From Oscillospiraceae bacterium (GTDB taxonomy: Bacteria; Bacillota; Clostridia; Oscillospirales; Acutalibacteraceae), in contig SVPN01000004.1 in NCBI GenBank assembly GCA_015065805.1, positions 17,186 through 81,185 on the forward strand: a stretch of 64,000 nt of DNA, read 5' to 3'. The notes beneath the pieces are model-generated. The model did not search any database. It was given only the letters and a program-made list of their open reading frames with translations, and was not told the DNA's origin. Made by a program: the position numbers and the translations under genes. This document shows, piece by piece, positions 15,364-47,694 of the stretch; positions within the stretch are counted from its first letter, which is position 1; every line of letters begins with the position of its first letter.

Positions 15364-16692
15364 TCACTTGCTTGATTCACCGCGCTCACGCACGATAAAG
15401 CGGATGGGGGTTCCTTCCAAGCCAAAGGTTTCGCGGATCTGATTTTCCAGGTAGCGTTGATAGGAGAAATGGAACAGCTCCGCGCTGTTAACAAAGCATA
15501 CAAAGGTCGGCGGTGCCACCGCCGCCTGCGTCATATAGAAAATGCGCAGACGGCGACCCTTATCCGACGGCGGCTGCACACGGGCAGTTGCCTGTGCCAG
15601 CACATCGTTGAGCATACCCGTGGCAATACGGGTCATATTCTGCTCGTGTACATAACAGATCAGCTCATACAAACGGTCAAGGCGCTGACCCGTTTTCGCG
15701 CTGATGAACACAAACGGCGCATAGGACATAAAGCTGAAGTCCTCCATCAGCTTTTTGCGCATCTGATCCATCGTCTTGTCGTCTTTTTCAACGGCATCCC
15801 ATTTGTTGACCGCAATGATGCACGCCTTGCCCTGTTCGTGTGCGATACCCGCCACCTTGCTGTCCTGCTCGGTAAAGCCTTCGGTAGCATCGATCATGAT
15901 CACGCACACATCCGCACGCTCCACCGCCATTTTGGCGCGGAGCACGCTGTATTTTTCAACATCGTCGTTGACCTTGCTCTTGCGGCGAAGTCCCGCCGTG
16001 TCGATAAAGAGGAAGCGTCCGAATTTGTTTTCCACTTCCGTGTCGATCGCATCGCGCGTTGTACCCGCAATATCCGACACAATGGAACGCTGTGTACCCG
16101 ACACCTTGTTCACAAGCGAGGATTTGCCGGCGTTGGGGCGACCGATCACCGCCACCTTGATTATGCCCTCTTCCTCTTCCTGCTCGGTCGGATCGGGCAG
16201 ATGCGCCGTCACCGCATCCAGCAAATCGCCCGTGCCGTGACCGTGCACCGAGGACACGGGAATGGGATCACCGAGTCCGAGGTTGTAAAATTCATAGAAA
16301 TCGGGAGGCACTTCACCGACACCGTCGCATTTGTTGACACACAGCACGACGGGTTTTCCCGAGCGTTGCAGCATACTTGCCACTTCCGCATCGTTAGCGG
16401 TCAGTCCCGAGCGCACATCGGTCACCAGTACGATCACATCCGCCTGTTCGATGGCAAGCTGTGCCTGATAGCGCATCTGCGACAAAATCACATCGTCGCT
16501 GTACGGCTCGATACCGCCCGTATCGGCAAGCATAAACGTGTGACCGTTCCATTCGCACGGCGCGAAAATACGGTCACGCGTCACACCGGGAGTATCCTTC
16601 ACAATGGACAGTCGCTGTCCGATGAGCTTATTGAACAAGGTGGATTTTCCCACATTCGGGCGGCCGACAACCGCCACAACCGGTCTTCCCAT
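15364..16692 (-). CDS. der: Ribosome-associated GTPase Der/EngA
   Basis: Two tandem GTPase domains (GRPNVGKST and GRPNAGKSS P-loops) plus a KH-like C-terminus. The start is set at the ATG after GGAGG; the ORF-track start is an upstream TTG. Confidence 0.95.
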   Translation of the reverse strand: MGRPVVAVVGRPNVGKSTLFNKLIGQRLSIVKDTPGVTRDRIFAPCEWNGHTFMLADTGGIEPYSDDVILSQMRYQAQLAIEQADVIVLVTDVRSGLTANDAEVASMLQRSGKPVVLCVNKCDGVGEVPPDFYEFYNLGLGDPIPVSSVHGHGTGDLLDAVTAHLPDPTEQEEEEGIIKVAVIGRPNAGKSSLVNKVSGTQRSIVSDIAGTTRDAIDTEVENKFGRFLFIDTAGLRRKSKVNDDVEKYSVLRAKMAVERADVCVIMIDATEGFTEQDSKVAGIAHEQGKACIIAVNKWDAVEKDDKTMDQMRKKLMEDFSFMSYAPFVFISAKTGQRLDRLYELICYVHEQNMTRIATGMLNDVLAQATARVQPPSDKGRRLRIFYMTQAAVAPPTFVCFVNSAELFHFSYQRYLENQIRETFGLEGTPIRFIVRERGESSK

Positions 16693-16724
16693 CCTCAAGC
16701 CCTCCTTTATATATAAAGTATTCC

Positions 16725-18050
16725 TTATTTTTCTTCTTCAAAACAAACGGCTTCCAAAAGCGCATAGCCGTTGACGGCAACCGGCACGACCGGCACGCCG
16801 ATCTCCCGACTGACCTCCTCCAAGGTGAGATCGTCCAGGAAGCAGTCGCCCTCATACCGAAGCATACAATCGGGGATGAGAACACGCGTCGCATCACAGC
16901 CTTTGAGCTGAGCGATCAGATCCCGACCCGTGACAAGCCCTGCCACCGTGATCGTTTCTCCGAAAAAGTCATTGCGGATGGCGCGCACCTCGCAATCGAT
17001 CTGCTCAAAACGTGCTTTTGCCGATTCCACCAATTCCTTGATAAACGGCGCGGCGGACACACCCGTCGCAATCCACGTTTTGCCCGCATTCGGTTCGCCC
17101 TCAAGATTGTCAAGTGCATCCGCAAACTCCTCACGTTGCAGACTGAGCACGCCGACACCGTTTTCTAACTGCGGATAGTCCCCGTAAAATGTCGGGGGCG
17201 GCAATTCGCGCTGTGCGATCAGGTAAAATTCATCCGACGGATACACCACGCGGTTTCCCGTTTCCTTGAGCAGGCGGTCACCGAATGCCGTCATCGTGTC
17301 GATCACCGCCGCGGCTTCCTCTTTGGTGAATAAGCGAAGCGGTGTCAGTCCGTCACGGTGCTTGGTCAGTCCCACGGGCACTGCCGCCACACTGTTCAGC
17401 GACGGAAGCAGCTTTGAAAGATCCTCGAGTGAGCGCATCAGCTCGTCTCCGTCATTCCACTCGGGACACAGCACCAGTTGACAGTTCAGCTCGATCCCCG
17501 CCTGCGCAAAACGCTCCAGCCAGCCGAGTGCTTCGCCCGCAAAACGGTTGTTCATCATTTTACAGCGCAGTTCGGGATTGGTGGTGTGCACGGAGACATT
17601 GACAGGACTGATGTGCATATCCATAATACGCTGACCCTCTTGCTCGGTCAGATTGGTCAGTGTGATATAGTTGCCGAACAAAAACGAAAGGCGGCTGTCG
17701 TCGTCTTTGAAATACAGACTGTCGCGCATCCCCTTGGGCATCTGATCAATGAAGCAAAACACACACTTGTTGCGACAGCTGTGCTGTTCATCCATCAGGT
17801 AGGTTGCGAATTCCAGACCGGGCTCTTCGCCCTCCACCGTGATCACACGGGTACGGGTATCGTCCGAACTGCGGAACACCATCTGCAGGCGGTCTTCGAT
17901 CACATAAAACCGATAGTCAAGTCCGTCGTTGATCTCGTGTCCGTTGATTTTGAGCAAGCGGTCACCCGCCTGGATGCCCTTATCGGCACAAGGGCTTTTC
18001 GGGATGACGCCGTCGATCACAACCGCCACATCCGCCGCCTCCTTTCGCAA
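16725..18050 (-). CDS. PDZ domain-containing radical SAM protein (DUF512 family)
   Basis: N-terminal PDZ-like segment (GIQAGDRLLKINGHEI) and a CX3CX2C cluster motif (CRNKCVFC). The architecture and position upstream of der are typical of the DUF512 family. Confidence 0.7.
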   Translation of the reverse strand: MRKEAADVAVVIDGVIPKSPCADKGIQAGDRLLKINGHEINDGLDYRFYVIEDRLQMVFRSSDDTRTRVITVEGEEPGLEFATYLMDEQHSCRNKCVFCFIDQMPKGMRDSLYFKDDDSRLSFLFGNYITLTNLTEQEGQRIMDMHISPVNVSVHTTNPELRCKMMNNRFAGEALGWLERFAQAGIELNCQLVLCPEWNDGDELMRSLEDLSKLLPSLNSVAAVPVGLTKHRDGLTPLRLFTKEEAAAVIDTMTAFGDRLLKETGNRVVYPSDEFYLIAQRELPPPTFYGDYPQLENGVGVLSLQREEFADALDNLEGEPNAGKTWIATGVSAAPFIKELVESAKARFEQIDCEVRAIRNDFFGETITVAGLVTGRDLIAQLKGCDATRVLIPDCMLRYEGDCFLDDLTLEEVSREIGVPVVPVAVNGYALLEAVCFEEEK

Positions 18051-35869: not shown

Positions 35870-37445
35870 TCTGTTGAAAAACAGACAAATCCGAATATTC
35901 GTACTTCGCGCGATCGCTTTGGTGCTTTGCACAGCGATGCTTCTTTCGCTGTGCCCGAACAGCTCCTTTTCCGCCCCTGCTGTCTATGCGCAGGGATCGG
36001 TGGAGGATCTGACCGCACAAAAAGAAGCGCTTGCCGCCGAGCAAGCGTTGCTTGCTCAGCAACGCGATGAAACCGCTTCTTCCCTGGAAGAACAAAAACT
36101 CCAGGACGAGATCATTCGCAAACAGATCGAAGCCAAATCCGAAGAGATCGGCATCAACCAGGCGTTGTTAGCCGCCCTTGAGGAAGCGATCGCCTCGAAA
36201 ACCGCGGGCATCGCCGCGCAGGACAGCGCCATCGCCGCACTGGATAAGGAAATCGCACAACAGCAAGCGGATCTGCGCGTTCAGCTGCGCGGCATCTCGC
36301 AAAAAAACGGTGTGCTGTCGGTTCTTCAGCTGATCCTCAACAGCAGTACATACACCGAATATCTCATCGGCTTTAAGGTGTCTGAGCAGATTTCTCAGCG
36401 AAACGAACAGCTTCTGATGCAGCTTGAGCAAAACATCCAAGCCGCTCAAAACGCACGCAACACCCTCAAGACCGACAAGGCGGCGCTGGAGATCGAACAC
36501 TCTCAGGCCGCCGCTGTGCAGGCGGAGCTGGAAAACGGCAAAGCCCACCTGCAACAGCTTTACAACGAATCCCACGCTTTGTCCGAGCAGATGGAGCAAA
36601 ACGTTGAATACCTCAACGAACAGATCGCCGTTATGGAGCAAGAGCAGGCGTATATGCAAAGCACCATTGAGGCGATCAAGGAGCAGATCCGTCTGGAAGA
36701 AGAGGCAAAGCGCCGTGAGGAAGAGGAAAAGAGACGTCAGGAGGAAGAAGAGCAAAAGCGTCTGGAAGAGGAACAGCGCCGTGAAGAGGAAGAAAACGGT
36801 GACAACGAAAGCTCCGATGACGAAAGCTCCGATGACGAAAGCTCCGATGACGACGAGGATCCCTCCGAGGATACCGGATCCGACGGCGAAGACGGCACCG
36901 AGGATGAAAACGATCCCGAGGACGATCCCGAAGATGACTCCGAGGACGATCCCGAGGATGACTCCGAGAACGATTCTGAAGACTCTTCGCTTGAAACAAT
37001 GCTTTGGCCCGCTCCCACCTGCCTTGTGATCACCAGCAGCTTTAAACTCCGTGATCTTGAAGAGGACAGCGCGGGTGCCAAATGGCACAACGGTGTGGAT
37101 ATCGCCTGCTACGGTGATGCCGAAGGCGAACCGATCATTGCCGCCGCATCGGGCAAAGTCCGCGTGTCCAACCGCTACGATTCCTACGGCGGCGGATACG
37201 GATATTACACCACGATCGACCACGGCTACGATTCCTACGGCCGACGCATCATCACTCTATACGCCCACTGCAGTGAAGTCCTCGTGTACGAAGGACAGGA
37301 AGTGGAAGCAGGCGAAGTGATCGGCTATGTCGGCAACACGGGCAACTCCTACGGTGCCCACCTGCACTTTGAGGTGCTTGTGGATTTTGTTGCCGTCGAT
37401 CCTACCGACTACCTTGACATCAGCGATATCGACATTTTGGGCTAA
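35853..37445 (+). CDS. Coiled-coil M23 (LytM-type) metallopeptidase, EnvC/PcsB-like candidate FtsEX partner, paralog 1
   Basis: Signal anchor, about 270 aa of heptad-rich coiled coil, then an acidic low-complexity linker and an M23 domain with HxxxD (WHNGVD), YAHC and HxH (AHLHFEV). The GTG start overlaps ftsX; a TTG at 35874 is an alternative start. Confidence 0.85.
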   Translation: MSQLTDLLKNRQIRIFVLRAIALVLCTAMLLSLCPNSSFSAPAVYAQGSVEDLTAQKEALAAEQALLAQQRDETASSLEEQKLQDEIIRKQIEAKSEEIGINQALLAALEEAIASKTAGIAAQDSAIAALDKEIAQQQADLRVQLRGISQKNGVLSVLQLILNSSTYTEYLIGFKVSEQISQRNEQLLMQLEQNIQAAQNARNTLKTDKAALEIEHSQAAAVQAELENGKAHLQQLYNESHALSEQMEQNVEYLNEQIAVMEQEQAYMQSTIEAIKEQIRLEEEAKRREEEEKRRQEEEEQKRLEEEQRREEEENGDNESSDDESSDDESSDDDEDPSEDTGSDGEDGTEDENDPEDDPEDDSEDDPEDDSENDSEDSSLETMLWPAPTCLVITSSFKLRDLEEDSAGAKWHNGVDIACYGDAEGEPIIAAASGKVRVSNRYDSYGGGYGYYTTIDHGYDSYGRRIITLYAHCSEVLVYEGQEVEAGEVIGYVGNTGNSYGAHLHFEVLVDFVAVDPTDYLDISDIDILG

Positions 37446-37481
37446 GCCCTTCGTGCTATAATTCAGAAAGTAGGTACTTTT

Positions 37482-38798
37482 GTGTTCGATTCTTACAAAT
37501 CATTCGCTTTGCGCATACTTTGTGTTCTGTTATCCCTTGCCTTGCTGGCGGGCAGTGCGGTCTGCGTATATGCAGAGGACAGCATCGACGAACTGACTTC
37601 ACAAAAGGACGATCTTGCTCTTCGTCAGGAAGAGCTTGCCGCCAAGCGCGACGAAGCGGCTGCTTCGCTGGAAGAACAACAGGAGCAAAGCAATGTGATC
37701 CGTGAGCAGATTGCCGCAAAGTCCGAGGAGATCGCACTCAACGAACAAATCCTGACAGAACTGGACCGAAAGATCCGAAACACCTCGGAGATGATCGCCT
37801 CAAAAGAGGAAGAAATTGCAAAGCGGGAACAGGAAATCCATCTGCGCCGCGAGACCCTTCGCACACGTCTGCGTGCCATCTCAAAAAAGAGTGTGTTGTT
37901 GTCCTTTTTTCAGTTCCTGTTCGGCAGAAATTCTTATGCGGATTTTTTGATGGGGTTTAAAGTGACCGAACGTGTCTCCGAAAACGACCAACAGATGATG
38001 GATGCACTGGAAGCCGACATCGCCGCACTGGAAACCGCCAAAAACAAGCTCAAAACCGACAAGGCCGCTCTGGAGATCGAACGCAGTCAGGCGGAAGCGA
38101 TCCGTAACGATACAGCACAAGACAAAGATTCTCTCCAACAGCTTTACAACGAATCCGACGCACTCGCGCAGGAAATGGCACAGGATGTGAACTACCTGCA
38201 ACATCAACTCGATGAAACCCTCTCAAAGCAACAAGCGCTTCAGACGGAGATCGATGCGATTCTTGAACGTATTCGTGCCGAAGAAGAAGCCGCACGCAAG
38301 GAAGCGGAAGAAAACGGCGAGGAATACCGTCCTTCCGATGACCTGATCTTCACGGGAAACGGCGACGGCACCATGCTTTGGCCGACTCCCACCTGTCCCG
38401 TCATCACCAGCAGCTTCGGCTGGCGCGAATGGAGCGAGACCTGGCACAAGGGCATTGATATTGCGTGCTACGGTGACGCCGAAGGAGAACCGATTGTTGC
38501 CGCGGCAGACGGGGTCGTCCACGTATTCTATGACGAATACGGCTACGGCAATTATATCACAATTGACCACGGCTATGACAGCGACGGTTGCCGTGTTCTG
38601 ACGGTGTATGCCCACTGCAGTCGTGTAGATGTCTCCTACGGCGATACCGTTACCGCCGGTCAACAGATCGGTCTTGTGGGAGACACCGGCAGATCCGATG
38701 GTGCTCATCTCCATTTTGAGGTCAATATTGACGGTGTCGCCGTTGATCCGATCTCAAACGGCTATCTGACAACGGACGGCATCGACGTCCTGAACTGA
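37482..38798 (+). CDS. Coiled-coil M23 metallopeptidase, paralog 2
   Basis: Same architecture as paralog 1: WHKGID, YAHC, AHLHFEV. The GTG start follows AGAAAGTAGGT. Confidence 0.85.
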   Translation: MFDSYKSFALRILCVLLSLALLAGSAVCVYAEDSIDELTSQKDDLALRQEELAAKRDEAAASLEEQQEQSNVIREQIAAKSEEIALNEQILTELDRKIRNTSEMIASKEEEIAKREQEIHLRRETLRTRLRAISKKSVLLSFFQFLFGRNSYADFLMGFKVTERVSENDQQMMDALEADIAALETAKNKLKTDKAALEIERSQAEAIRNDTAQDKDSLQQLYNESDALAQEMAQDVNYLQHQLDETLSKQQALQTEIDAILERIRAEEEAARKEAEENGEEYRPSDDLIFTGNGDGTMLWPTPTCPVITSSFGWREWSETWHKGIDIACYGDAEGEPIVAAADGVVHVFYDEYGYGNYITIDHGYDSDGCRVLTVYAHCSRVDVSYGDTVTAGQQIGLVGDTGRSDGAHLHFEVNIDGVAVDPISNGYLTTDGIDVLN

Positions 38799-38831
38799 TC
38801 TGCCGCATATTACCACACAGCGACCCTCTCT

Positions 38832-40148
38832 TTGTCGCTGTATCGAGAAAGTAGGTGTTGCGATTTGAATCGTGTATTCTGTGTCGCTCAACCGTTTATA
38901 AAATGTCTGTGTGTTCTGCTGGCTATGTCGGTGCTTCTCAGCTCCGTTTCCGTATTTTGGGAGAACGCTCCCGCTTCGGTTTGCGTTTCTGCAGAGGAAA
39001 GCGAAGAGGAACTGCGTGATCAGAAGGAAGAACTGCAACAAAAGCAGGAGGAGTTAGAGGCACTTCGGAACGAATCCGCCGCCACACTCGAAGAGCAGGA
39101 AGCACAAAAGGATATCATCTCCGAACAAATCGCTCTGAAAATTGAAGAGATCGAACTCAATCAACAGCTTGTCAACGAGATGGATGCCAAAATCGAGGAT
39201 GCCAATTATCAGATCGCCCTCAAACAGCAATCCATCGCCGAAAAGGAAGCCGAGATCGCCGTGGCTTTTGAAGCACTGCAGGTTCGCCTTCGCGCCCTCT
39301 CCAAAACCGGCTCTCTCACCTCTCTCCTTCAGATGATCATCAGCTCCGACGGTTTTCTTGATTATCTCCTGAAAGCCAAGGCAATGCAACGTCTTGCAAA
39401 AGAAAACGAACGCCTGATGCAGGAGCTGGAAGGCGAAATGCAGGCGATCAATGCACAAAAAGATGCTTTGGAAGCAGAAAAAGCCAAGATCGAAGAGGAA
39501 CGCAAGCCGATCGTTCAGCTCCAGACAGACCTGAACAACGCCAAGATGGACCTGGATGTGCTTTACAGTGAGGCAAACGCCATCACCGAAAAGCTTAACC
39601 AGGACATTGATCATTACAACGCCGCCATCGCACAATCCGAAGCGGATCAGGCGGCACTGGAAGAAAAGATCAACGAGCTGCTGATGCAAAACGCCGGCAG
39701 CGGTCAGGCATACCTGAGCGGCTCGATGTACTGGCCCGCTCCCAGCTGTAACTACATCTCCTCCACCTTCAAGTTCCGCTGGGGCAAATGGCACAACGGC
39801 ATCGACATCTGCGGCGGCGGTTGCTACGGCACCTCCGTTGTAGCGGGTGCCGACGGTATCGTCACCTACGCCGACTGGATGAGCGGCTACGGCTGGTGTG
39901 TGATCGTGGATCACGGTACCGATTCCAACGGCTACAACGTTACCACCCTGTACGCACACTGCGCCGAGCTGTATGTGTACGAGGGTCAGTCCGTGTCGGG
40001 CGGCGAAACCATTGCCGCTGTCGGCAGCTCGGGTAATTCCACCGGTCCCCACCTGCATTTTGAGGTGCGTCTTGACGGTTCGGCGGTTGACCCCATCTCC
40101 AACGGCTATGTTTCCACCGGCGGCATCATCATTGACGAGTCGCTGTAA
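38832..40148 (+). CDS. Coiled-coil M23 metallopeptidase, paralog 3
   Basis: Same architecture: WHNGID, YAHC, PHLHFEV. The likely true start is the TTG at 38865, which sits behind the same AGAAAGTAGGT motif seen before paralog 2. Confidence 0.85.
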   Translation: MSLYRESRCCDLNRVFCVAQPFIKCLCVLLAMSVLLSSVSVFWENAPASVCVSAEESEEELRDQKEELQQKQEELEALRNESAATLEEQEAQKDIISEQIALKIEEIELNQQLVNEMDAKIEDANYQIALKQQSIAEKEAEIAVAFEALQVRLRALSKTGSLTSLLQMIISSDGFLDYLLKAKAMQRLAKENERLMQELEGEMQAINAQKDALEAEKAKIEEERKPIVQLQTDLNNAKMDLDVLYSEANAITEKLNQDIDHYNAAIAQSEADQAALEEKINELLMQNAGSGQAYLSGSMYWPAPSCNYISSTFKFRWGKWHNGIDICGGGCYGTSVVAGADGIVTYADWMSGYGWCVIVDHGTDSNGYNVTTLYAHCAELYVYEGQSVSGGETIAAVGSSGNSTGPHLHFEVRLDGSAVDPISNGYVSTGGIIIDESL

Positions 40149-40176
40149 CAGGCTTAACCGAAAGGAACGATTCTTT

Positions 40177-41484
40177 ATGATCCGTTCTTCTTATCTGAAA
40201 ATTGTATTGGCTGTGCAGATCATCGCTCTGGTGATCTGCACATTCCCATACCCTGCCCTTGTCAGCTCGGCACAGGGAACGACCGTTCCGAGCGCACCGC
40301 AATCCATCGGCGAAACCTTTAACCCCGGGGATGCCTCCTATGTGCAATCGCTTGAGGATCAGCGCGCGCAATTACAGCATCAGGCAAACGAATTACAGCA
40401 AGCGCGCCAATTCTATTCTGATTCCTTAGACGGTCTGATCCAGCAAAAAGACAACATCGAAAAGCAGATCACGCTCAAGCAACAGGAGATCGACATCAAT
40501 GCGCTTATTTTGGAAAGCCTCAATGCGCAGATCGACATCACCGACGAACAGCTGATCCTCGCTGAACAAACGATGCTTCTCAAGCGCCAGACCCTGCTGA
40601 CGCGCTTTGAAGAATTGCGTCAAAAGCTCCGCGATCTGTCCAAGGGCGGCAGTATGACGCCGATTCAGATGCTGTTGAATACCGATAGCTTCACGAGCTT
40701 TCTCATCAATATGAAAATGGCATCCCGTATTTCGCAGGCTGATCAGCAAGCGATCAGTGCTCTGGAAACGGAGCTTGCCGAAGTACAGGCACAGCAGGAA
40801 GAGCTGTCACAACAGCAGACCCGTCTTGAGGAAGCGCGCCGACCGCACGAAGCCGCCTCTGTCGAGCTGGAAATCGCCAAAACAGAGCTGCTGTCGCTTC
40901 ACGCGGAATCGATAAAGATCGAAGATATGCTCTCGGAAAACCTGACCTATTACCGCACGCAGTATCTGGAGCTTCTCAACGAACAGCGTAAGCTGCATCT
41001 GCAGCTCACCGATATCCTCGGCAAATACGATATGAGCGGTGTTGCCGCCCCGACCCTGATGTTCTGGCCGACACCCGAATGCACCATTATCACCAGCTCC
41101 TATAAAGCACGCTGGGGCAAGTGGCACTACGGTCTGGACATCGCCTGCTACGGTGACGCAACAGGCAAGTCGGTTCTTGCCGCGGCAGACGGCACCGTGA
41201 TTTTTGCGGGCTATGACGAAAGCGGCTACGGCAATTATGTCATCATCGATCACGGCTACGATGTGTTCGGCAGACGCGTTGTCACTTTGTACGGACATTG
41301 CCACGAATTACTTGTCAAAGAGGGCGACATCGTGCTCGGCGGTCAGACCCGCATCGCCCTTGTGGGAGATACCGGCCGTTCCTCGGGCGCACATCTGCAT
41401 TTTGAGGTGCGCCTTGACGGCTCAGCAGTTGACCCCGTCGGCGAAGGCTTCGTGCTCACCGACAACATCGCCATCGTCGGGTGA
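40177..41484 (+). CDS. Coiled-coil M23 metallopeptidase, paralog 4
   Basis: ORF 39973 trimmed to the ATG at 40177 (MIRSSYLKIVLAV..., signal anchor). It has WHYGLD, YGHC and AHLHFEV. Confidence 0.85.
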   Translation: MIRSSYLKIVLAVQIIALVICTFPYPALVSSAQGTTVPSAPQSIGETFNPGDASYVQSLEDQRAQLQHQANELQQARQFYSDSLDGLIQQKDNIEKQITLKQQEIDINALILESLNAQIDITDEQLILAEQTMLLKRQTLLTRFEELRQKLRDLSKGGSMTPIQMLLNTDSFTSFLINMKMASRISQADQQAISALETELAEVQAQQEELSQQQTRLEEARRPHEAASVELEIAKTELLSLHAESIKIEDMLSENLTYYRTQYLELLNEQRKLHLQLTDILGKYDMSGVAAPTLMFWPTPECTIITSSYKARWGKWHYGLDIACYGDATGKSVLAAADGTVIFAGYDESGYGNYVIIDHGYDVFGRRVVTLYGHCHELLVKEGDIVLGGQTRIALVGDTGRSSGAHLHFEVRLDGSAVDPVGEGFVLTDNIAIVG

Positions 41485-41500
41485 GCAATTTCGATTTTTA

Positions 41501-41529
41501 TTGACAATATTTCTTTAGTTTTGTATAAT
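41501..41529 (+). promoter_or_regulatory. Perfect-consensus sigma-A promoter TTGACA-17-TATAAT
   Basis: The hexamers at 41501-41506 and 41524-41529 and the 17-nt spacer were read directly. It sits in AT-rich DNA 35-53 nt upstream of the TIR-LRR start codons. Confidence 0.7.
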
Positions 41530-41563
41530 TGAAATATGTTCTTTATCTCTGTATATATAATTT

Positions 41564-43240
41564 ATGAAAGGCGTGCTGTTTATGTCTGACTCCAAGCCGA
41601 TGGAAATTGCTCTGGATCCCAACTTTAAAGATGTTCCCGCACCGTTTGATCCCAAAAAAGAATTGCGTGAAGGTGACCCCTTCATTTTTGTGAGTTATTC
41701 ACATCACAATAAAGCACAGGTCTATCCGGTTCTCGATTATCTCCATAACGAAAAAAAATTCCACATCTGGTATGACCCTGCTATGGAATGTGGCGTTCAG
41801 GATTTCCGCGATGAATTACGCAGAAAAATCGAAAGCTGTACAGCTGTTCTTCTGTTCGTTTCCAAAGAATCGATGTCCTCTATCTACTGCGGTATGGAAA
41901 TTATCGTGGCACAAGAGAACCAAAAACCGTTTTATATCGTCCGTCTTGACAAAACCGAATATCCTCCCGCTTTCGAGATTCTGCTCGGAAAAATCCACGC
42001 AATTGACGGAACAAATCCCCAGGCTGCCGGCCGCGATCTCAAAGATGTTCTTCCCCCGGAAACAATGGAACGCCTGATTTACGAAGGCAATGTATTGACA
42101 AGCTGCGAACATTACGGTGCTACTATTGAAATCGGAAAAGAAGCCAGTTTTATCGGTGACAGTGCTTTTCACGGTAATCTCACGCTGGAGAACATCTCCT
42201 TCCCCGAAACGATCCGTGCAATCGGAAAGGAAAGCTTCCGCGGATGCACGAATCTGACCGAAATTCTGATTCCGTATGCAACCGAACGCATCGGTGAAAG
42301 CGCATTCCGCGACTGCACAAGTCTGAAGAAACTGGTTGTGCAAAATCAGTGCATCAAGATCGGCGAGCGAGCTTTTGAAAACTGCTCCACCCTTGAGGAT
42401 GTTCAACTCCCCGAAGGCCTGACCGAGATTTACGGCGGTGTCTTTAACAGTTGCCGCGGCCTGAAACATATTACTCTTCCTAAAATGTTGACTGTTCTCG
42501 GCGAAAGTGCATTTTCGGATTGTTCAAGCCTCACAGATATCGACATTCCCGCCTCCGTAACCAAGATCGACGATCTGGTTTTTAACGGGTGTACTAAACT
42601 GACAACCATCACTCTTCACGAAGGCTTGAAAAAGATCGGTAAAGGTGCTTTCAAAAATTGCTCGGTACTGGAAGAAGTTGAAATCCCGGCGTCTGTTTCA
42701 TTGATCAATGACGCTGTATTCCGCGGCTGTAAAGCTTTGTTTTCCATTAAGGTTTCGCCGAAAAACAAACATTATAAATCTGAGTTGACTTGTCTGGAAG
42801 GTTCTCGTTCTCACGTTCTGTTCAACAAAAACAAGTCCATCTTACTCGCCTACCCGGGTGCCGTTGTTGAGCAGGATTATACCGTCCCCGACAGTGTTGT
42901 TACGATCAGTGACTGGGCCTTCTGCGAAGCAAGAAATCTGTCTAAGGTGATCATTCCCGACAGTGTACAGTCCATCGGTGAAGGTGCATTCTGCAATTGC
43001 ACCAATTTGCTTAGGGTATCGATTCCCGATTCCGTTACACAAATTGATGATTGTGCTTTCCGCGGATGCAGCGGCTTGAAGGAAATCCACATTCCCTCTT
43101 CGGTCGTTGAATTCGGTTGGGGTGTGTTTGACGGTTGTGATGAGCAGCTGAAAGTGTACTGTGAAATGGGTTCTGCGATTGACACCTATTGCAAAGGAAA
43201 CCGTATCAACACGGTATATTTAGATAAAGTTGAGGCATAA
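41564..43240 (+). CDS. Cytosolic TIR domain protein fused to BspA-type leucine-rich repeats
   Basis: Residues ~38-130 are a TIR_2-like domain: PFIFVSYSHHNK...HIWYD...AVLLFVSKESMSSIYCGMEIIVA...PFYIVRL, with candidate catalytic Glu112 (nt 41897-41899). Residues ~185-545 hold about 14 repeats of the I..AF..C..L..I.IP.SV..I pattern (LRR_5/BspA type). No signal peptide or TM segment. An alternative start ATG at 41582 has a better SD (GAAAGG). Confidence 0.8.
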   Translation: MKGVLFMSDSKPMEIALDPNFKDVPAPFDPKKELREGDPFIFVSYSHHNKAQVYPVLDYLHNEKKFHIWYDPAMECGVQDFRDELRRKIESCTAVLLFVSKESMSSIYCGMEIIVAQENQKPFYIVRLDKTEYPPAFEILLGKIHAIDGTNPQAAGRDLKDVLPPETMERLIYEGNVLTSCEHYGATIEIGKEASFIGDSAFHGNLTLENISFPETIRAIGKESFRGCTNLTEILIPYATERIGESAFRDCTSLKKLVVQNQCIKIGERAFENCSTLEDVQLPEGLTEIYGGVFNSCRGLKHITLPKMLTVLGESAFSDCSSLTDIDIPASVTKIDDLVFNGCTKLTTITLHEGLKKIGKGAFKNCSVLEEVEIPASVSLINDAVFRGCKALFSIKVSPKNKHYKSELTCLEGSRSHVLFNKNKSILLAYPGAVVEQDYTVPDSVVTISDWAFCEARNLSKVIIPDSVQSIGEGAFCNCTNLLRVSIPDSVTQIDDCAFRGCSGLKEIHIPSSVVEFGWGVFDGCDEQLKVYCEMGSAIDTYCKGNRINTVYLDKVEA

Positions 43241-43242
43241 CT

Positions 43243-44370
43243 ATGACCGCGTTGCAAACCGTATTAGGATTCATCAAAAAAAACGTGGTTATGACGGTGG
43301 CGCTTTGCGCTGCCGTCATAACCTCCTTTCTTGTACCTATCGATAAAGAGTATCTGGGGTATTTCGATTTCAAAACGCTCACCTGTCTGTTTTGTGTATT
43401 GGCGGTCGTGTGCGCACTTCGGAACATCCGCTTTTTCTACATTCTCGCAAAAAAGATCGTGCAGCTCTTTAAAAATGCCCGTATGAGCATTCTGGGATTG
43501 GTGTATATCACCTTTATCGGCTCTATGCTGATTGCTAACGATATGGCATTGTTGACGTTTCTGCCGCTCGGTTTCTTTGTACTGAGCACAACCGGCAAAG
43601 AAAAATATATGGCGTTCACGTTCATTATGCAAAATATCGCCGCCAACCTTGGCGGTATGCTTACCCCGTTCGGTAATCCGCAAAACCTGTATTTATACAC
43701 CGCCTTTGAAATTCCCAATCTCGAATTTATGGCGATTATGGCGCCACCCTTTATTGTCTCGATTCTTTTGATCACGCTGTGTTGTATTGTTTTCGTAAAA
43801 CCGGAGCCGTTGGAAATTGAGGATGACCGCGCAACACTTCCCGTCGGTCGCACCGTTTTGTATCTTTGCCTGTTCGCATTGTCGATCGTCATTATTTTTC
43901 GCGGTATTCCGTACTGGATCGGCCTGATCATCATTCCGATCGTACTGCTGTTTGCGGACCGTAAAGCCTTGCTGGATGTTGACTATCCGTTGCTGTTCAC
44001 CTTTGTGTTTTTCTTTATTTTTGCAGGCAATATGGCACGCATTGATATCGTCCGTGACTTCTTCTCGACGCTTCTTGAAAAAAGCACACTGCTGTTCAGC
44101 GCTCTTTCCTGCCAGATCATCAGTAATGTTCCCTCGGCGATTCTGCTCTCGCAATTCACCGAAAACTACCGTGATCTTCTGGTTGGTGTTAACATCGGCG
44201 GTGTCGGCACCCTGATCGCATCGCTGGCGAGTCTCATCACTTTCCGTGAGTATACCAAGCACAACCCCGGTAAAGGTGGCTATTATATCAAAGTGTTTTC
44301 CGCTTTCAACTTCGGTTTTCTGGTGATTTTGATCGGCTTTATGATGGTGTGGAATCATTTTGTTATTTAA
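43243..44370 (+). CDS. ArsB/NhaD-superfamily (CitMHS-like) anion/ion permease
   Basis: 375 aa, about 10-11 TM segments. The GSMLIANDMALLTFLP and LTPFGNPQNLYLY motifs are typical of this superfamily. It starts 2 nt after the TIR-LRR stop, behind a GAGG RBS. Confidence 0.65.
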   Translation: MTALQTVLGFIKKNVVMTVALCAAVITSFLVPIDKEYLGYFDFKTLTCLFCVLAVVCALRNIRFFYILAKKIVQLFKNARMSILGLVYITFIGSMLIANDMALLTFLPLGFFVLSTTGKEKYMAFTFIMQNIAANLGGMLTPFGNPQNLYLYTAFEIPNLEFMAIMAPPFIVSILLITLCCIVFVKPEPLEIEDDRATLPVGRTVLYLCLFALSIVIIFRGIPYWIGLIIIPIVLLFADRKALLDVDYPLLFTFVFFFIFAGNMARIDIVRDFFSTLLEKSTLLFSALSCQIISNVPSAILLSQFTENYRDLLVGVNIGGVGTLIASLASLITFREYTKHNPGKGGYYIKVFSAFNFGFLVILIGFMMVWNHFVI

Positions 44371-44378
44371 AAAAGGAG

Positions 44379-45191
44379 ATGACTTCTTTGCCGGCATATT
44401 TCCACTATACCATTGACGCTTACGGTTGCCTATCACAGCAAACCAATAAACTGATGGTGATCAATGATTTTTTGGTGACCACGGCAACAGAATTGGATAT
44501 GCAGCCCGTTATGCCACCGTTTCTTGTTCCCTATTATTATTGTGACGATGCTCAGGATGTCGGCATCAGCGCCTTTTGCATTTGCGCAGACGGGTCGCAC
44601 ATCACCATCCACACGTTCCCTGAGCGTTCCTGCTACTTCATTGACATTCTGACCAATTCCTTTTTGGAGGAGGCAAAGGTCAAAGATCTTGTGTGCAAAC
44701 AGCTTTACGCGGGCAACTTCAGCATTCAGACATTGGATCGCCGCGATTTTGCATCCGATCCGAGTGCCGTTGACACACAAAATGATTTCGGTCCGCATTT
44801 TATGATTACGGTCAATAATCCCAAGACCTCTTTTGAGGCAATCTACAAGTGGCTGGAAACCATTGCCCCGAAAATCAATATGAACCCCATTTCCCGCCCG
44901 TATGTCATTTATGACCGTGTTGAGGACCCGCAAACCATTTCCGGTATTTTAGTCGTCGCACAAAGTCACATTGCCTTCCATTACTGCATTGAAGACGATG
45001 TTGCCAACATCGATATCTTTTCCTGCAGCTTTCTGGATCTGGATGTGATCGAAGCCATTATCCACGAGGACTTCGGTATGGACGCACGGATCGATCTGTT
45101 TGCGCGCGGCAGTAAGCATCGCTATGAATGCCAGCACTATTCGCGTCAGACCCGCATCGAAAAAAATAAAACCTGGCAAAAAAATCTGTAA
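44379..45191 (+). CDS. Fused double S-adenosylmethionine decarboxylase (SpeD/AdoMetDC)-fold protein, non-canonical
   Basis: The N-terminal half has HYTIDAYGC and GISAFCICADGSHITIHTFPE...FIDILT. The C-terminal half has SGILVVAQSHIAFHYCIED...NIDIFSCS. Both match the class 1 SpeD pattern (H...YGC; G.S..V.ISESH...HT.PE...D.FTC), but the ES cleavage dipeptide is replaced by GS and QS. The start is the ATG at 44379 or the TTG at 44388 (better SD spacing). Confidence 0.6.
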   Translation: MTSLPAYFHYTIDAYGCLSQQTNKLMVINDFLVTTATELDMQPVMPPFLVPYYYCDDAQDVGISAFCICADGSHITIHTFPERSCYFIDILTNSFLEEAKVKDLVCKQLYAGNFSIQTLDRRDFASDPSAVDTQNDFGPHFMITVNNPKTSFEAIYKWLETIAPKINMNPISRPYVIYDRVEDPQTISGILVVAQSHIAFHYCIEDDVANIDIFSCSFLDLDVIEAIIHEDFGMDARIDLFARGSKHRYECQHYSRQTRIEKNKTWQKNL

Positions 45192-45195
45192 TAAC

Positions 45196-45227
45196 AAAAA
45201 ACGCAACCGAAACGGTTGCGTTTTTTG
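45196..45227 (+). terminator. Intrinsic terminator closing the TIR-LRR/permease/SpeD-like operon
   Basis: AACGCAACCG-AAA-CGGTTGCGTT hairpin followed by TTTTTT, 5 nt after the stop. Confidence 0.9.
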
Positions 45228-45300
45228 TTGCTTTGGGGTTGATTCGGGTAAGGTATCTGGTGTATAATTAAAGTATACAATCGTACTTTTGAGGTGTGTT

Positions 45301-47694
45301 ATGAACTTTCGGGATTACTTACACGATCATATCGTGATACTTGACGGCGGCATGGGGACGCTGTTGCAGGCACAAGGTCTGCAACCCGGCGAATACCCCG
45401 AGCGGTGGAACCTTACCCATCCCGACGCTGTTGTTGCCGTTCATAAAGCCTATTACGAGGCAGGTAGCACCATCGTTTCCACCAACACCTTCGGCGCCAA
45501 TTCGCTGAAATTTTCTTCGGATGAGCTGGCATCGATCGTGAAAGCGGCGGTTGCCAATGCCAACGCCGCCAAAGCGCAATGCAAGGACGGTCTTCCCCGC
45601 TTTGTCGCGCTGGATATCGGTCCGACGGGTAAGCTACTCAAACCCCTTGGCGATCTTGATTTTGAGGACGCCGTCTCCGTTTTTGCGCAAACCGTCCGGT
45701 TGGGCGTTCAATGCGGTGTCGATGCCATTCTCATCGAAACGATGAACGACAGCTACGAAACCAAAGCGGCATTGCTTGCCGCCAAGGAGAACAGCGATCT
45801 TCCCGTGCTTGTATCCAACGCCTACGGCGAAGACGGCAAGCTGATGACGGGAGCTACTCCCGCCGCAATGGTCGCGATGGCCGAAGGCTTAGGCGCGGAT
45901 GCCATCGGTGCCAACTGCTCACTCGGTCCTGCACAGCTCCGCGGTGTCGTGGAGGAATTGCTTGCCAATGCCTCCATCCCCGTGCTGTTCAAGCCGAATG
46001 CAGGCCTCCCGAAGATGGACAACGGCAACACGGTGTTTGATATCACCCCTGCCGAATTTGCCGACGAGGTAGCATCGCAATTGGCAAAGGGTGTGCGGCT
46101 TGCCGGTGGCTGCTGCGGTACAACCCCCACCTATATCGCCTTATTAAGCGAACGTGCCGCCACGGTATCCCCCGTCCCTCTCACAAGCAAAAACCGCACC
46201 GTGGTGTCCTCCTATTCGCACGCTGTGGTCTTTTCGGACACCCCCGTGCTGATCGGTGAACGCATCAACCCCACGGGTAAAAAACGCTTTAAGCAGGCAC
46301 TTGTTGAGCAGGATATGGACTATATCCTCAACGAAGGCATCCGTCAGCAGGAAAAGGGTGTCCATATTTTGGATGTCAATGTCGGTCTGCCCGATATCGA
46401 CGAGCCTGCGATGCTGACACGAACGGTATGTGACCTGCAGGCGATTCTGGACTTACCGCTGCAGATCGACACCTCCGACCCTGTGGCGATGGAAGCCGCT
46501 TTGCGCCGCTATAACGGCAAGGCGCTCATCAACTCCGTCAACGGCAAAAAGGACAGTATGGCCGCAATTTTTCCGCTTGTCAAAAAATACGGCGGCGTGG
46601 TAGTAGCACTGACGCTGGACGAAAACGGCATTCCCGAAACCGCCGAAGGTCGCGTTGCCATTGCTCAAAGGATTCTCGACACGGCTGCCTCCTACGGCAT
46701 CGATAAACGCGATATCGTATTTGATACCCTGGCAATGACCGTCAGCGCCGATAACCGTGCCGCTCTTGCAACCCTCGGTGCTTTACACACCATTCGCTAT
46801 ACGCTCGGCTGTCACACCTCGCTTGGCGTATCCAATGTTTCCTTCGGACTTCCCTGCCGCGATGCGGTCAACAGCACCTTCTTTGCACTGGCGCTTCAAA
46901 GCGGGCTGTCTGCCGCCATTATGAATCCGCATTCGGCGGATATGATGAAGGTATACTATGCCTACAATGCCCTGAAAGGCACAGATGAGAATTGTGCCGC
47001 TTACATTGCGCACGCAGAGGAATTTGCCGTTACAGCCGCTTCTGCGCCCACTGTCGGGGCTTCTGCCGCGATCGACGCCGCATCAGAACTCCAGCACGCC
47101 GTTATCAAAGGCTTGCAGGAGAAAGCCGCCACGCTAACACGTGCCCTTCTTGCACACACAGCGCCGCTGGATATTGTCAACAACGACATCATCCCCGCAC
47201 TGAATGTTGTCGGGGACGGCTTCGAAAAGAAGACGATGTATCTTCCTCAGCTTCTGATGAGTGCCGAAGCCGCCAAAAGTGCTTTTGAGGTGATCAAATC
47301 CACTATGAACAGCGACGCCTCTCACGCAAACGGCACGGTTGTTTTGGCAACGGTACACGGCGATATTCACGATATCGGCAAAAACATCGTCAAGCTATTG
47401 CTGGAAAACTACGGCTTTTGCGTTGTGGATCTCGGCAAGGATGTTCCGCCCGAAGTCATCGTGCAGCAGGCAGTCACGCTTCACGCACCCCTTGTAGGGC
47501 TCAGTGCGTTGATGACCACCACCGTTCCTGCAATGGAGGAAACCATCCGACAGCTTCGCTGTGATGCACCGTGGTGCAAGGTCGTTGTCGGCGGTGCCGT
47601 GCTGACACAGGACTATGCCGACCGCATCGGCGCCGATAAATATGCCAAGGACGCGATGGAAACGGTTCGCTACGCACAGGAGCTTCTCTTATAA
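45301..47694 (+). CDS. metH: Methionine synthase (cobalamin-dependent, lacking the C-terminal AdoMet activation domain)
   Basis: ATG at 45301 after GAGG. It has a homocysteine S-methyltransferase domain, a pterin-binding domain, a B12 cap and a B12-binding domain with DxHxxG (DIHDIGKN). About 797 aa, as in the Clostridia/Thermotoga-type short MetH. Confidence 0.9.
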   Translation: MNFRDYLHDHIVILDGGMGTLLQAQGLQPGEYPERWNLTHPDAVVAVHKAYYEAGSTIVSTNTFGANSLKFSSDELASIVKAAVANANAAKAQCKDGLPRFVALDIGPTGKLLKPLGDLDFEDAVSVFAQTVRLGVQCGVDAILIETMNDSYETKAALLAAKENSDLPVLVSNAYGEDGKLMTGATPAAMVAMAEGLGADAIGANCSLGPAQLRGVVEELLANASIPVLFKPNAGLPKMDNGNTVFDITPAEFADEVASQLAKGVRLAGGCCGTTPTYIALLSERAATVSPVPLTSKNRTVVSSYSHAVVFSDTPVLIGERINPTGKKRFKQALVEQDMDYILNEGIRQQEKGVHILDVNVGLPDIDEPAMLTRTVCDLQAILDLPLQIDTSDPVAMEAALRRYNGKALINSVNGKKDSMAAIFPLVKKYGGVVVALTLDENGIPETAEGRVAIAQRILDTAASYGIDKRDIVFDTLAMTVSADNRAALATLGALHTIRYTLGCHTSLGVSNVSFGLPCRDAVNSTFFALALQSGLSAAIMNPHSADMMKVYYAYNALKGTDENCAAYIAHAEEFAVTAASAPTVGASAAIDAASELQHAVIKGLQEKAATLTRALLAHTAPLDIVNNDIIPALNVVGDGFEKKTMYLPQLLMSAEAAKSAFEVIKSTMNSDASHANGTVVLATVHGDIHDIGKNIVKLLLENYGFCVVDLGKDVPPEVIVQQAVTLHAPLVGLSALMTTTVPAMEETIRQLRCDAPWCKVVVGGAVLTQDYADRIGADKYAKDAMETVRYAQELLL

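Follow-up and report, generated by a model that had tools for sequence, protein, structure and literature searches.

We analysed a stretch of 64,000 nucleotides from an Oscillospiraceae bacterium (GenBank assembly GCA_015065805.1, contig SVPN01000004.1, positions 17,186 to 81,185 of the forward strand), referred to herein as the window, whose numbering is used for all positions unless a locus is named. The window carries a compact block of three genes: g1 encodes a cytosolic protein with a TIR domain and leucine-rich repeats (LRR), g2 a permease of the ArsB/CitMHS superfamily, and g3 a double decarboxylase of the S-adenosylmethionine decarboxylase (AdoMetDC) fold. The explanation that we tentatively favour, at a little short of an even chance, is that this block is a horizontally acquired, lineage-specific chimera of two TIR-centred modules and serves as a chimeric TIR-centred conflict or signalling operon. 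One parent would be a TIR-LRR/permease module and the other a five-gene TIR cassette; both are conserved gene modules of gut Clostridia and both are apparently undescribed. The block comprises the following features:

41501 to 41529, forward strand: sigma-70-type promoter, TTGACA-17-TATAAT with TG upstream of the -10 box, matching the consensus at 12 of 12 positions and driving the block
41564 to 43240, forward strand: g1, cytosolic TIR-LRR protein of 558 aa, with the TIR domain at about residues 38-160 and a BspA-type LRR_5 solenoid at about residues 196-558
43243 to 44370, forward strand: g2, ArsB/CitMHS-superfamily permease of 375 aa with about 9-10 transmembrane (TM) segments
44388 to 45191, forward strand: g3, predicted fused pseudo-dimeric pyruvoyl-type decarboxylase of 267 aa, starting at TTG 44388 in the public gene call
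45193 to 45229, forward strand: intrinsic terminator, with perfectly complementary 17-nt arms (45193-45209 and 45213-45229), a 3-nt loop and T-rich sequence after it

Since the three genes share one perfect promoter, one terminator and equal G+C, have ribosome-binding sites, and are separated by only 2 nt (g1-g2) and by 8 or 17 nt (g2-g3, according to the g3 start chosen), they are predicted to form a single operon. The promoter is the sole perfect 12/12 match within 41000-45600, and the terminator hairpin, just 3' of g3, has a dG of -25.8 (z -6.5). All three elements of this picture, the consensus promoter, the strong terminator and the tight packing, had been proposed in a preliminary description made by eye, and each was confirmed. 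The public call starts g1 at ATG 41582 instead of 41564, which gives a protein of 552 aa. For g3, ATG 44379 and GTG 44349 are alternative starts; the TTG start has a ribosome-binding site 9 nt before it, and the gene has no promoter of its own.

The block has a G+C of 0.460 (g1 0.459, g2 0.457, g3 0.468) versus 0.548 for the remainder of the window. In 3.6-kb sliding windows the mean G+C was 0.543 with a standard deviation (SD) of 0.022, and the minimum, 0.457, fell exactly on the block, at 41400. No other part of the window has so low a G+C, and the value lies about 3.9 SD under the mean; the block is therefore likely of foreign origin, and the low-GC island first suspected from a few hand counts holds for the window as a whole. 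No integrase, transposase or target-site duplication was found around the block, in agreement with the preliminary description, which had seen neither mobility genes nor flanking repeats. The only match is an exact 15-nt direct repeat, GTCAGACCCGCATCG, at 41342-41356 in the last M23 peptidase gene and at 45145-45159 in the 3' end of g3; each copy encodes Q-T-R-I, and about 0.01 such matches would be expected by chance in 5.1 kb. The two copies lie inside open reading frames (ORFs), the one in g3 within a motif conserved across its family, and the repeat was rejected as an insertion scar. The likeness of two consensus -10 regions was also rejected as a scar. Public gene calls on a contig of the same organism give the order FtsX, four M23/PcsB-type paralogues, the block, metH and the dcw cluster, and so place the block between the FtsEX/M23 array and metH, as had been described. 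Looking for the exact MetH protein led to no contigs except those of the same organism, and all of these carry the block.

The TIR and LRR domains previously assigned to g1 were recovered by Pfam (TIR_2, 1.2e-15; LRR_5, 1.1e-81) and by an AlphaFold2 (AF2) model (pLDDT 86), in which a BspA-type LRR solenoid comes after the TIR domain. g1 has no predicted TM or signal segment. The putative catalytic residue, Glu112 (GAA, 41897-41899), is invariant in 21 aligned TIR-LRR proteins, and the match of g1 to the ThsB_TIR model (0.0073) falls under the model cut-off. The best Foldseek matches were the gut-bacterial LRR_5 structures 4fs7 and 4gt6, with RPP1 also among the matches; the LRR dominated this search, which yielded nothing informative on the TIR subtype. 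The LRR-coding part of the gene has a 69-nt periodicity at the DNA level. Thousands of relatives of g1 have the same length, the best of them about 58% identical.

g2 is, by its profile matches, a complete ArsB/CitMHS-type permease, as had been proposed. It scores 8.4e-26 against Pfam CitMHS (91.3 bits versus a cut-off of 31.9), and a profile search matched the solved ArsB structure 10tp over residues 44-370 (2.2e-17). Like other permeases of this superfamily it passes the CitMHS gathering threshold, matches the whole ArsB core and has about 9-10 TM segments, with nine TM-like segments in the prediction; unlike them it is short (375 aa versus about 430-450 aa for ArsB) and is conserved beside a TIR-LRR gene. 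Its relatives of the same length number in the thousands, with best matches 80-90% identical. The 5' end of the gene contains one further feature:

43287 to 43323, forward strand: 17-bp hairpin followed by a T-rich tract, inside the part of g2 that encodes TM1 (dG -30.5, z -7.1)

About 9 of 15 g2 homologues form a stem of 13-15 bp, with compensatory substitutions, in the corresponding place; among them is the solo permease at L090, which has no TIR-LRR gene. The hairpin may be an attenuation or translation-control element. In one g2 homologue, P0121 (490 aa, from a 7086-bp NCBI contig), about 115 residues are duplicated in tandem within the protein, so that the segment 'LAVVCALKNV...MAPPF' occurs twice; this may be real or an assembly artefact.

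The pairing of g1 with g2 recurs widely. In a metagenome scan we collected 60 close TIR-LRR relatives, 56 of which had room downstream on their contig; the permease lies directly 3' of the TIR-LRR gene in 47 of these 56, and a decarboxylase in none. After de-replication at 90% identity, 22 of 24 lineages have an ArsB/CitMHS permease adjacent to the TIR-LRR gene, placed either before or after it. At L153 the permease (identified by Pfam) stands directly upstream of the TIR-LRR gene instead, and at L141 and L142, its cluster-mates, homologous upstream ORFs were scored as adjacent permeases in a search seeded with the L153 permease. Look-ups showed that the stop codon of the TIR-LRR gene and the start codon of the permease gene overlap in unrelated contexts, and we regard the permease as translationally coupled to the TIR-LRR protein. 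The G+C of the module follows that of its host over a range of 27-62% and averages 3.5 points under its flanks. On this evidence of gene order, TIR-LRR plus permease is a conserved, widespread module. Some of these pairs have defence-like neighbours, namely an IetA-type ATPase (1.5e-32) with a ThsB-like TIR at L175, and TIR-HD and TIR-DUF4190 proteins at L093, while the neighbours of other loci are not defence-like; at L088 a TraG-like gene stands beside the module. Near one pair, at L176 135-3362, there is also an SNF2 helicase that matches the DpdE/ZorD models (1.7e-147).

A third gene, which we refer to as U, lies within 3.5 kb of the TIR-LRR gene in 16 of the 24 lineages. U proteins carry 3-5 TM helices at the N-terminus and an RyR domain (PF02026; 1.4e-6 in L068) at the C-terminus, together with a weak TrkA_N-like region. 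Examples are:

L093, 5184 to 6983: U gene
L068, 952 to 2667: U gene
L175, 8643 to 10727: U gene
L111, 10213 to 12573: U gene

RyR domains were shown in 2026 to bind or cleave the 2' and 3' isomers of cyclic ADP-ribose (cADPR) made by TIR enzymes (PMC13232231). Because they recognise cADPR-type TIR signals, U beside a TIR gene looks like a signal-reading membrane partner and is a candidate sensor of such signals, which makes the TIR-LRR/permease module a timely one.

The third gene of the block has a different history. Pfam AdoMet_dc matches g3 in two stretches (5.6e-25), and in the AF2 model (pLDDT 80, pTM 0.81) the protein consists of two tandem AdoMetDC-fold halves. Foldseek placed each half on the AdoMetDC of T. 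maritima and of A. aeolicus (TMt 0.76-0.80), and the whole protein aligned to the human AdoMetDC proenzyme, 1msv (TMq 0.44). Thus the double AdoMetDC fold read from the letters was recovered by all three approaches. We call proteins of this type double decarboxylases (dDC). The dDC family is small and patchy, with members of about 267-272 aa, 383 matches in a database clustered at 90%, and 38 clusters at E <= 1e-30 among 1.84 billion representatives. The C-terminal half of dDC proteins has an invariant Gln/Glu-Ser-His...His...Cys motif that aligns in T. maritima SpeD to the processing Ser63 and to His68 and Cys83; in g3 the corresponding residues are Gln192-Ser193-His194, His198 and Cys213 (Ser193 = AGT, 44964-44966), with Gln in place of Glu before the processing Ser (QSH versus ESH). 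The N-terminal half has lost the Cys, and its Ser position varies among S, T, A, E and G, with Gly in the majority of clades, while the surrounding motif is invariant. Since Ser, His and Cys are universal in the C-terminal half and the N-terminal Ser is variable and the Cys lost, g3 is predicted to be a pseudo-dimer with one competent pyruvoyl site, in its C-terminal half, the N-terminal half being a conserved pseudo-site. g3 itself retains every family-invariant residue.

This arrangement resembles that seen in eukaryotic class 2 AdoMetDC, in which two AdoMetDC-fold halves likewise make up a pseudo-dimer and only one pyruvoyl site is present. In g3, however, the active half is C-terminal, whereas in eukaryotes it is N-terminal; the relationship does not extend from fold to sequence, and g3 likely acts on a different substrate. 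A prokaryotic single-site pseudo-dimer of AdoMetDC fold with an active C-terminal half would bear on models for the origin of the eukaryotic enzyme. Closer in architecture are the SpeD1-SpeD2 fusions described by Li et al. (JBC 2023; PMC10407285), in which two class-1b AdoMetDC-fold domains also share one chain of about 270 aa. There, a bona fide AdoMetDC forms the N-terminal half and an ornithine decarboxylase, or a degraded domain, the C-terminal one; speE follows. In g3, by contrast, only the C-terminal half keeps Ser, His and Cys, with QSH and not ESH, and the neighbours of dDC genes are not speE: they are the TIR gene and the genes A, B and C of the cassette described below, while metH follows g3. 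The host of g3 belongs to the Bacillota, a phylum from which no such fusion is reported in PMC10407285. With the SpeD-derived pyruvoyl arginine and ornithine decarboxylases of the same study g3 shares a fold apparently neofunctionalised away from S-adenosylmethionine (SAM), the absence of speE and a gene context that points to arginine or ornithine.

The usual home of dDC was established by four independent look-ups and a scan of one genome per species (79 loci), using our own hidden Markov models for the neighbours. In 55 of the 79 loci dDC belongs to a same-strand cassette of fixed order, TIR / A (about 740 aa) / B (about 310 aa) / C (about 770 aa) / dDC, with dDC always last. The flanks vary between loci, and the hosts are gut Clostridia. 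Five further loci hold B and/or C on contigs that end before the expected TIR position. Among the loci L001-L073, two examples are:

L001, 1329 to 8804: complete five-gene cassette
L003, 1411 to 8819: complete five-gene cassette

All 56 cassette TIRs examined have the catalytic Glu. B is a ParA/MinD-like protein with an invariant KGGAGR[ST] P-loop; against solved structures it matches only ParA/MinD N-termini (E about 0.1). A and C had no sequence relatives in Pfam, PADLOC or the PDB. The cassette thus links four further proteins to a TIR protein: one that is ParA-like, two that are large and of unknown fold, and a fused pyruvoyl decarboxylase that likely acts on arginine. Eleven of the 55 cassettes, which form a deep branch, are led by a gene that itself encodes a TIR-LRR fusion. 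The C-terminal domain of the cassette TIR proteins was also tried as a divergent LRR, and this was rejected, as profile-profile comparison aligned the TIR parts only. The deep-branch cassette L068 has a member of the U family directly upstream of its TIR-LRR gene, and weaker U-like matches occupy the same position in L059 and L063; a U gene in this position links the two module types. Beside the cassette at L003 we also noted a separate CxxCxxCC gene just upstream of the TIR gene (907-1386) and, downstream, a large protein with a Tubulin_2 domain (15685-16819).

In a neighbour-joining tree g3 lies deep inside the crown cassette clade, sister to the dDCs of L006 and L008, on a long branch, and it is 67% identical to the nearest cassette dDC. 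Because g3 nests within this clade, it was in all likelihood extracted from a five-gene TIR cassette. g1 was considered as the TIR gene of that same cassette and rejected, as its TIR domain is only about 30% identical to cassette TIRs. The disparity between these two values, about 30% for the TIR of g1 and 67% for g3, marks the operon as recombinant, and the TIR domain appears from gene content to be the hub common to both parent modules.

Several dDC loci bear on the substrate of g3. A gene of the arginase family (agmatinase-type) lies -3 to 7 nt upstream of dDC in L062, L065 and L081, and in L057 (3903-10798) and L060 (3831-10795) such a gene replaces TIR as the lead of the cassette, with a 0-nt gap to A in L057. 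No spermidine synthase gene, speE, was found beside the dDC loci examined, including the arginase-dDC pairs. A distant dDC relative, P0409, is fused to a PAD_porph domain, whose family includes agmatine deiminase. Li et al. (PMC10407285) reasoned that a SpeD homologue without speE and with agmatine-pathway partners is an arginine or ornithine decarboxylase; following this logic, the agmatinase-type partners, the PAD_porph fusion and the lack of speE suggest that g3 is probably an L-arginine or L-ornithine decarboxylase and not an AdoMetDC. The latter assignment was rejected on the same partners, the lack of speE and the QSH motif. No agmatinase-type gene is present in the 64-kb window. Other dDC-domain fusions are to a radical SAM domain (P0417) and to a CxxCxxCC domain (P0491).

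As g1 and g2 on the one hand and g3 on the other belong to separate modules, how far the trio forms a unit has to be weighed. The exact trio was seen in this organism only, on 3 contigs. A CitMHS-type permease gene occurs in 0 of the 79 species-level dDC loci, and dDC in 0 of the 24 de-replicated TIR-LRR lineages, so that the trio is not the recurrent system that the preliminary description had in mind, and the operon in the window may be an evolutionary one-off. g3 might then be functionally unlinked to g1 and g2: a stray survivor of a broken cassette, recombined downstream of them and either serving as a stand-alone putrescine-pathway enzyme or drifting. Beyond the uniqueness of the trio, the different TIR lineage of g1 and the long branch of g3 would fit this explanation, as would the deeper dDC relatives, which occur in simple arginase-dDC pairs. 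Against it stand the retention of every family-invariant residue and the lack of an agmatinase-type gene in the window. g3 also has its own ribosome-binding site but no promoter of its own, begins 8-17 nt after g2 and has the same foreign G+C as the other two genes, and, since 55 of 79 loci link this dDC to a TIR gene, a chance landing by another TIR gene is unlikely. On balance we regard the absence of a functional link as unlikely. The tight spacing, single promoter and terminator, shared foreign G+C and retained invariant residues of g3 argue instead that the block is used as one unit. Were the trio a chance juxtaposition, the operon in the window would be ordinary, and both parent modules would still be of interest.

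A second way of joining the genes, already offered in the preliminary description, makes g2 and g3 a pair for precursor/product antiport and decarboxylation, acting in pH or proton-motive-force generation as AdiA/AdiC or HdcA/HdcP do, with the TIR-LRR protein as a recruited regulator. Pyruvoyl decarboxylases such as HdcA pair with antiporters, and here a permease does lie directly beside a pyruvoyl-type amino-acid decarboxylase in one operon. The comparative data point the other way, as g2-type and g3-type genes never recur together in either set of loci and the conserved neighbour of the permease is the TIR-LRR gene. Moreover, g2 belongs to the ArsB/CitMHS ion-transporter superfamily, whereas characterised arginine/agmatine exchangers belong to APC-type families, and we know of no characterised arginine/agmatine exchanger in the ArsB/CitMHS superfamily. 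This pairing did not hold up, and we consider it very improbable.

Under the chimera reading, the LRR solenoid of g1 would bind a conserved protein ligand or partner and thereby control the TIR domain, which would convert NAD+ to an ADP-ribose (ADPR)-derived product or deplete NAD+. The membrane permease would be the output, through altered ion or metabolite flux or de-energisation of the membrane, and the decarboxylase would add an arginine/agmatine/putrescine arm to the same response. The most likely role of such an operon would be that of a conflict system, anti-phage and of the abortive-infection type. A link between TIR chemistry and arginine/agmatine/polyamine metabolism would, if true, be new. 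A more specific coupling, which we mention as a long shot, is that agmatine or putrescine made by the pyruvoyl enzyme serves as ADP-ribose acceptor for a TIR using NAD+, giving a new amine-ADPR messenger that would be read by the membrane partners, that is, the permease here, RyR proteins elsewhere and the A/B/C machinery in the cassette. The analogue for this idea is histidine-ADPR, the signal of type II Thoeris (bioRxiv 10.1101/2024.01.03.573942). If true, TIR systems with this coupling would form a new class, in which one enzyme is dedicated to supplying the co-substrate, and the coupling would explain why agmatinase and TIR genes are alternative leads of the same cassette.

A number of observations weigh against the chimeric conflict operon. 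Its occurrence in a single organism leaves the link of g3 to g1 and g2 without comparative support, and it builds on a substrate of g3, a product of the TIR and a cargo of g2 that we infer. The LRR of g1 is not hypervariable, being 59% identical to other lineages versus 50% for the TIR domain; the conservation of g2 is very high (80-90%), and a solo permease 82% identical to g2 occurs without any TIR. Taken together, the conserved LRR, the conserved g2 and the solo permease give a pattern more like that of a physiological module than of an arms-race gene. Only the permease domain was recognised in g2, with no signal-binding domain, and the window contains no U gene. The internal hairpin of g2 might limit transcription of g2 and g3. 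Against the PADLOC models (2023), g1 gave only weak TIR-domain matches (best 3.2e-4), cassette B only weak PDC-M28B matches, and g2, g3 and cassette A and C no match; viral contigs yielded no relatives of g2, nor of g3 when scanned with the g3 profile. Finally, the surroundings of the block are housekeeping genes for cell division and metH. The idea of a TIR-based sensor system, the first hypothesis of the preliminary description, stands in part: the conserved TIR-LRR/permease module, often accompanied by an RyR protein, and the TIR-led cassette that is home to dDC support it, whereas the LRR, not being hypervariable, and the lack of any phage link found do not.

The same observations raise a physiological, non-immune alternative, in which the TIR-LRR protein makes a cADPR-type messenger in answer to a conserved cellular ligand and so tunes the permease (elsewhere the RyR membrane protein) and, in this block, putrescine/agmatine synthesis as well. 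Such a system would parallel, in bacteria, the cADPR-RyR axis of animals. It accords with the conservation of TIR-LRR, LRR included, and permease across hosts of 27-62% G+C, whose composition the module follows, with the recurrence of U and its TM segments, weak TrkA_N-like region and RyR domain, and with the recognition of cADPR isomers by RyR domains (PMC13232231); the housekeeping neighbourhood and the weakness of the PADLOC matches fit it too. Set against these are the variable genomic sites of the modules, their patchy distribution, their G+C mostly below that of the flanks, and their position beside other TIR/IetA-type genes (L093, L175) and a TraG-like gene (L088). In addition, every characterised bacterial TIR enzyme acts, to our knowledge, in conflict systems. 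We judge a purely physiological role improbable and retain, with the reserve stated at the outset, the chimeric TIR-centred operon.

Among known systems the block is nearest to Thoeris (types I-XI; ThsB plus effector), with which it shares a compact operon led by a TIR protein with a catalytic Glu and an adjoining membrane protein; in related loci the partner carries an RyR domain able to bind cADPR-type TIR signals, and some relatives lie beside defence-type genes. It differs from Thoeris in several respects: a long BspA-type LRR is joined to the TIR of g1, the constant companion is a full ArsB/CitMHS permease in which no signal-binding domain is recognisable, the operon includes a pyruvoyl decarboxylase, and PADLOC detects only weak TIR-domain resemblance. 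A 2025 survey covering 29 Thoeris configurations names neither a decarboxylase nor an LRR or permease in its main text. Animal Toll-like receptors and plant TIR-NB-LRR receptors such as RPP1 also combine TIR and LRR solenoid in one polypeptide, but g1 lacks NB-ARC and TM segments, has its TIR N-terminal to a BspA-type (LRR_5) solenoid that is not hypervariable, and is a cytosolic bacterial protein. Literature searches agreed with the initial statement that no described system combines the three gene types. Neither parent module was found described in PADLOC 2023 or in a non-exhaustive search of the literature (TIR, Thoeris or defence with AdoMetDC, SAM or arginine decarboxylase, or BspA). New TIR partners have so far each revealed a new signal or effector logic.

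Two further features of the window were noted. A second TIR-repeat protein of 897 aa is encoded at 4503-7196 on the forward strand, between a Peptidase_M14 gene and uvrC; its TIR_2 domain (residues 166-258, 1.1e-13) is followed by a long TPR array. Straight after ftsX, at about 36000-41484 on the forward strand (L174 637-6184), lie four tandem paralogues of a coiled-coil M23 (PcsB-like) peptidase, of 502, 438, 407 and 435 aa, and this fourfold array is an unusual amplification of the FtsEX-activated hydrolase.

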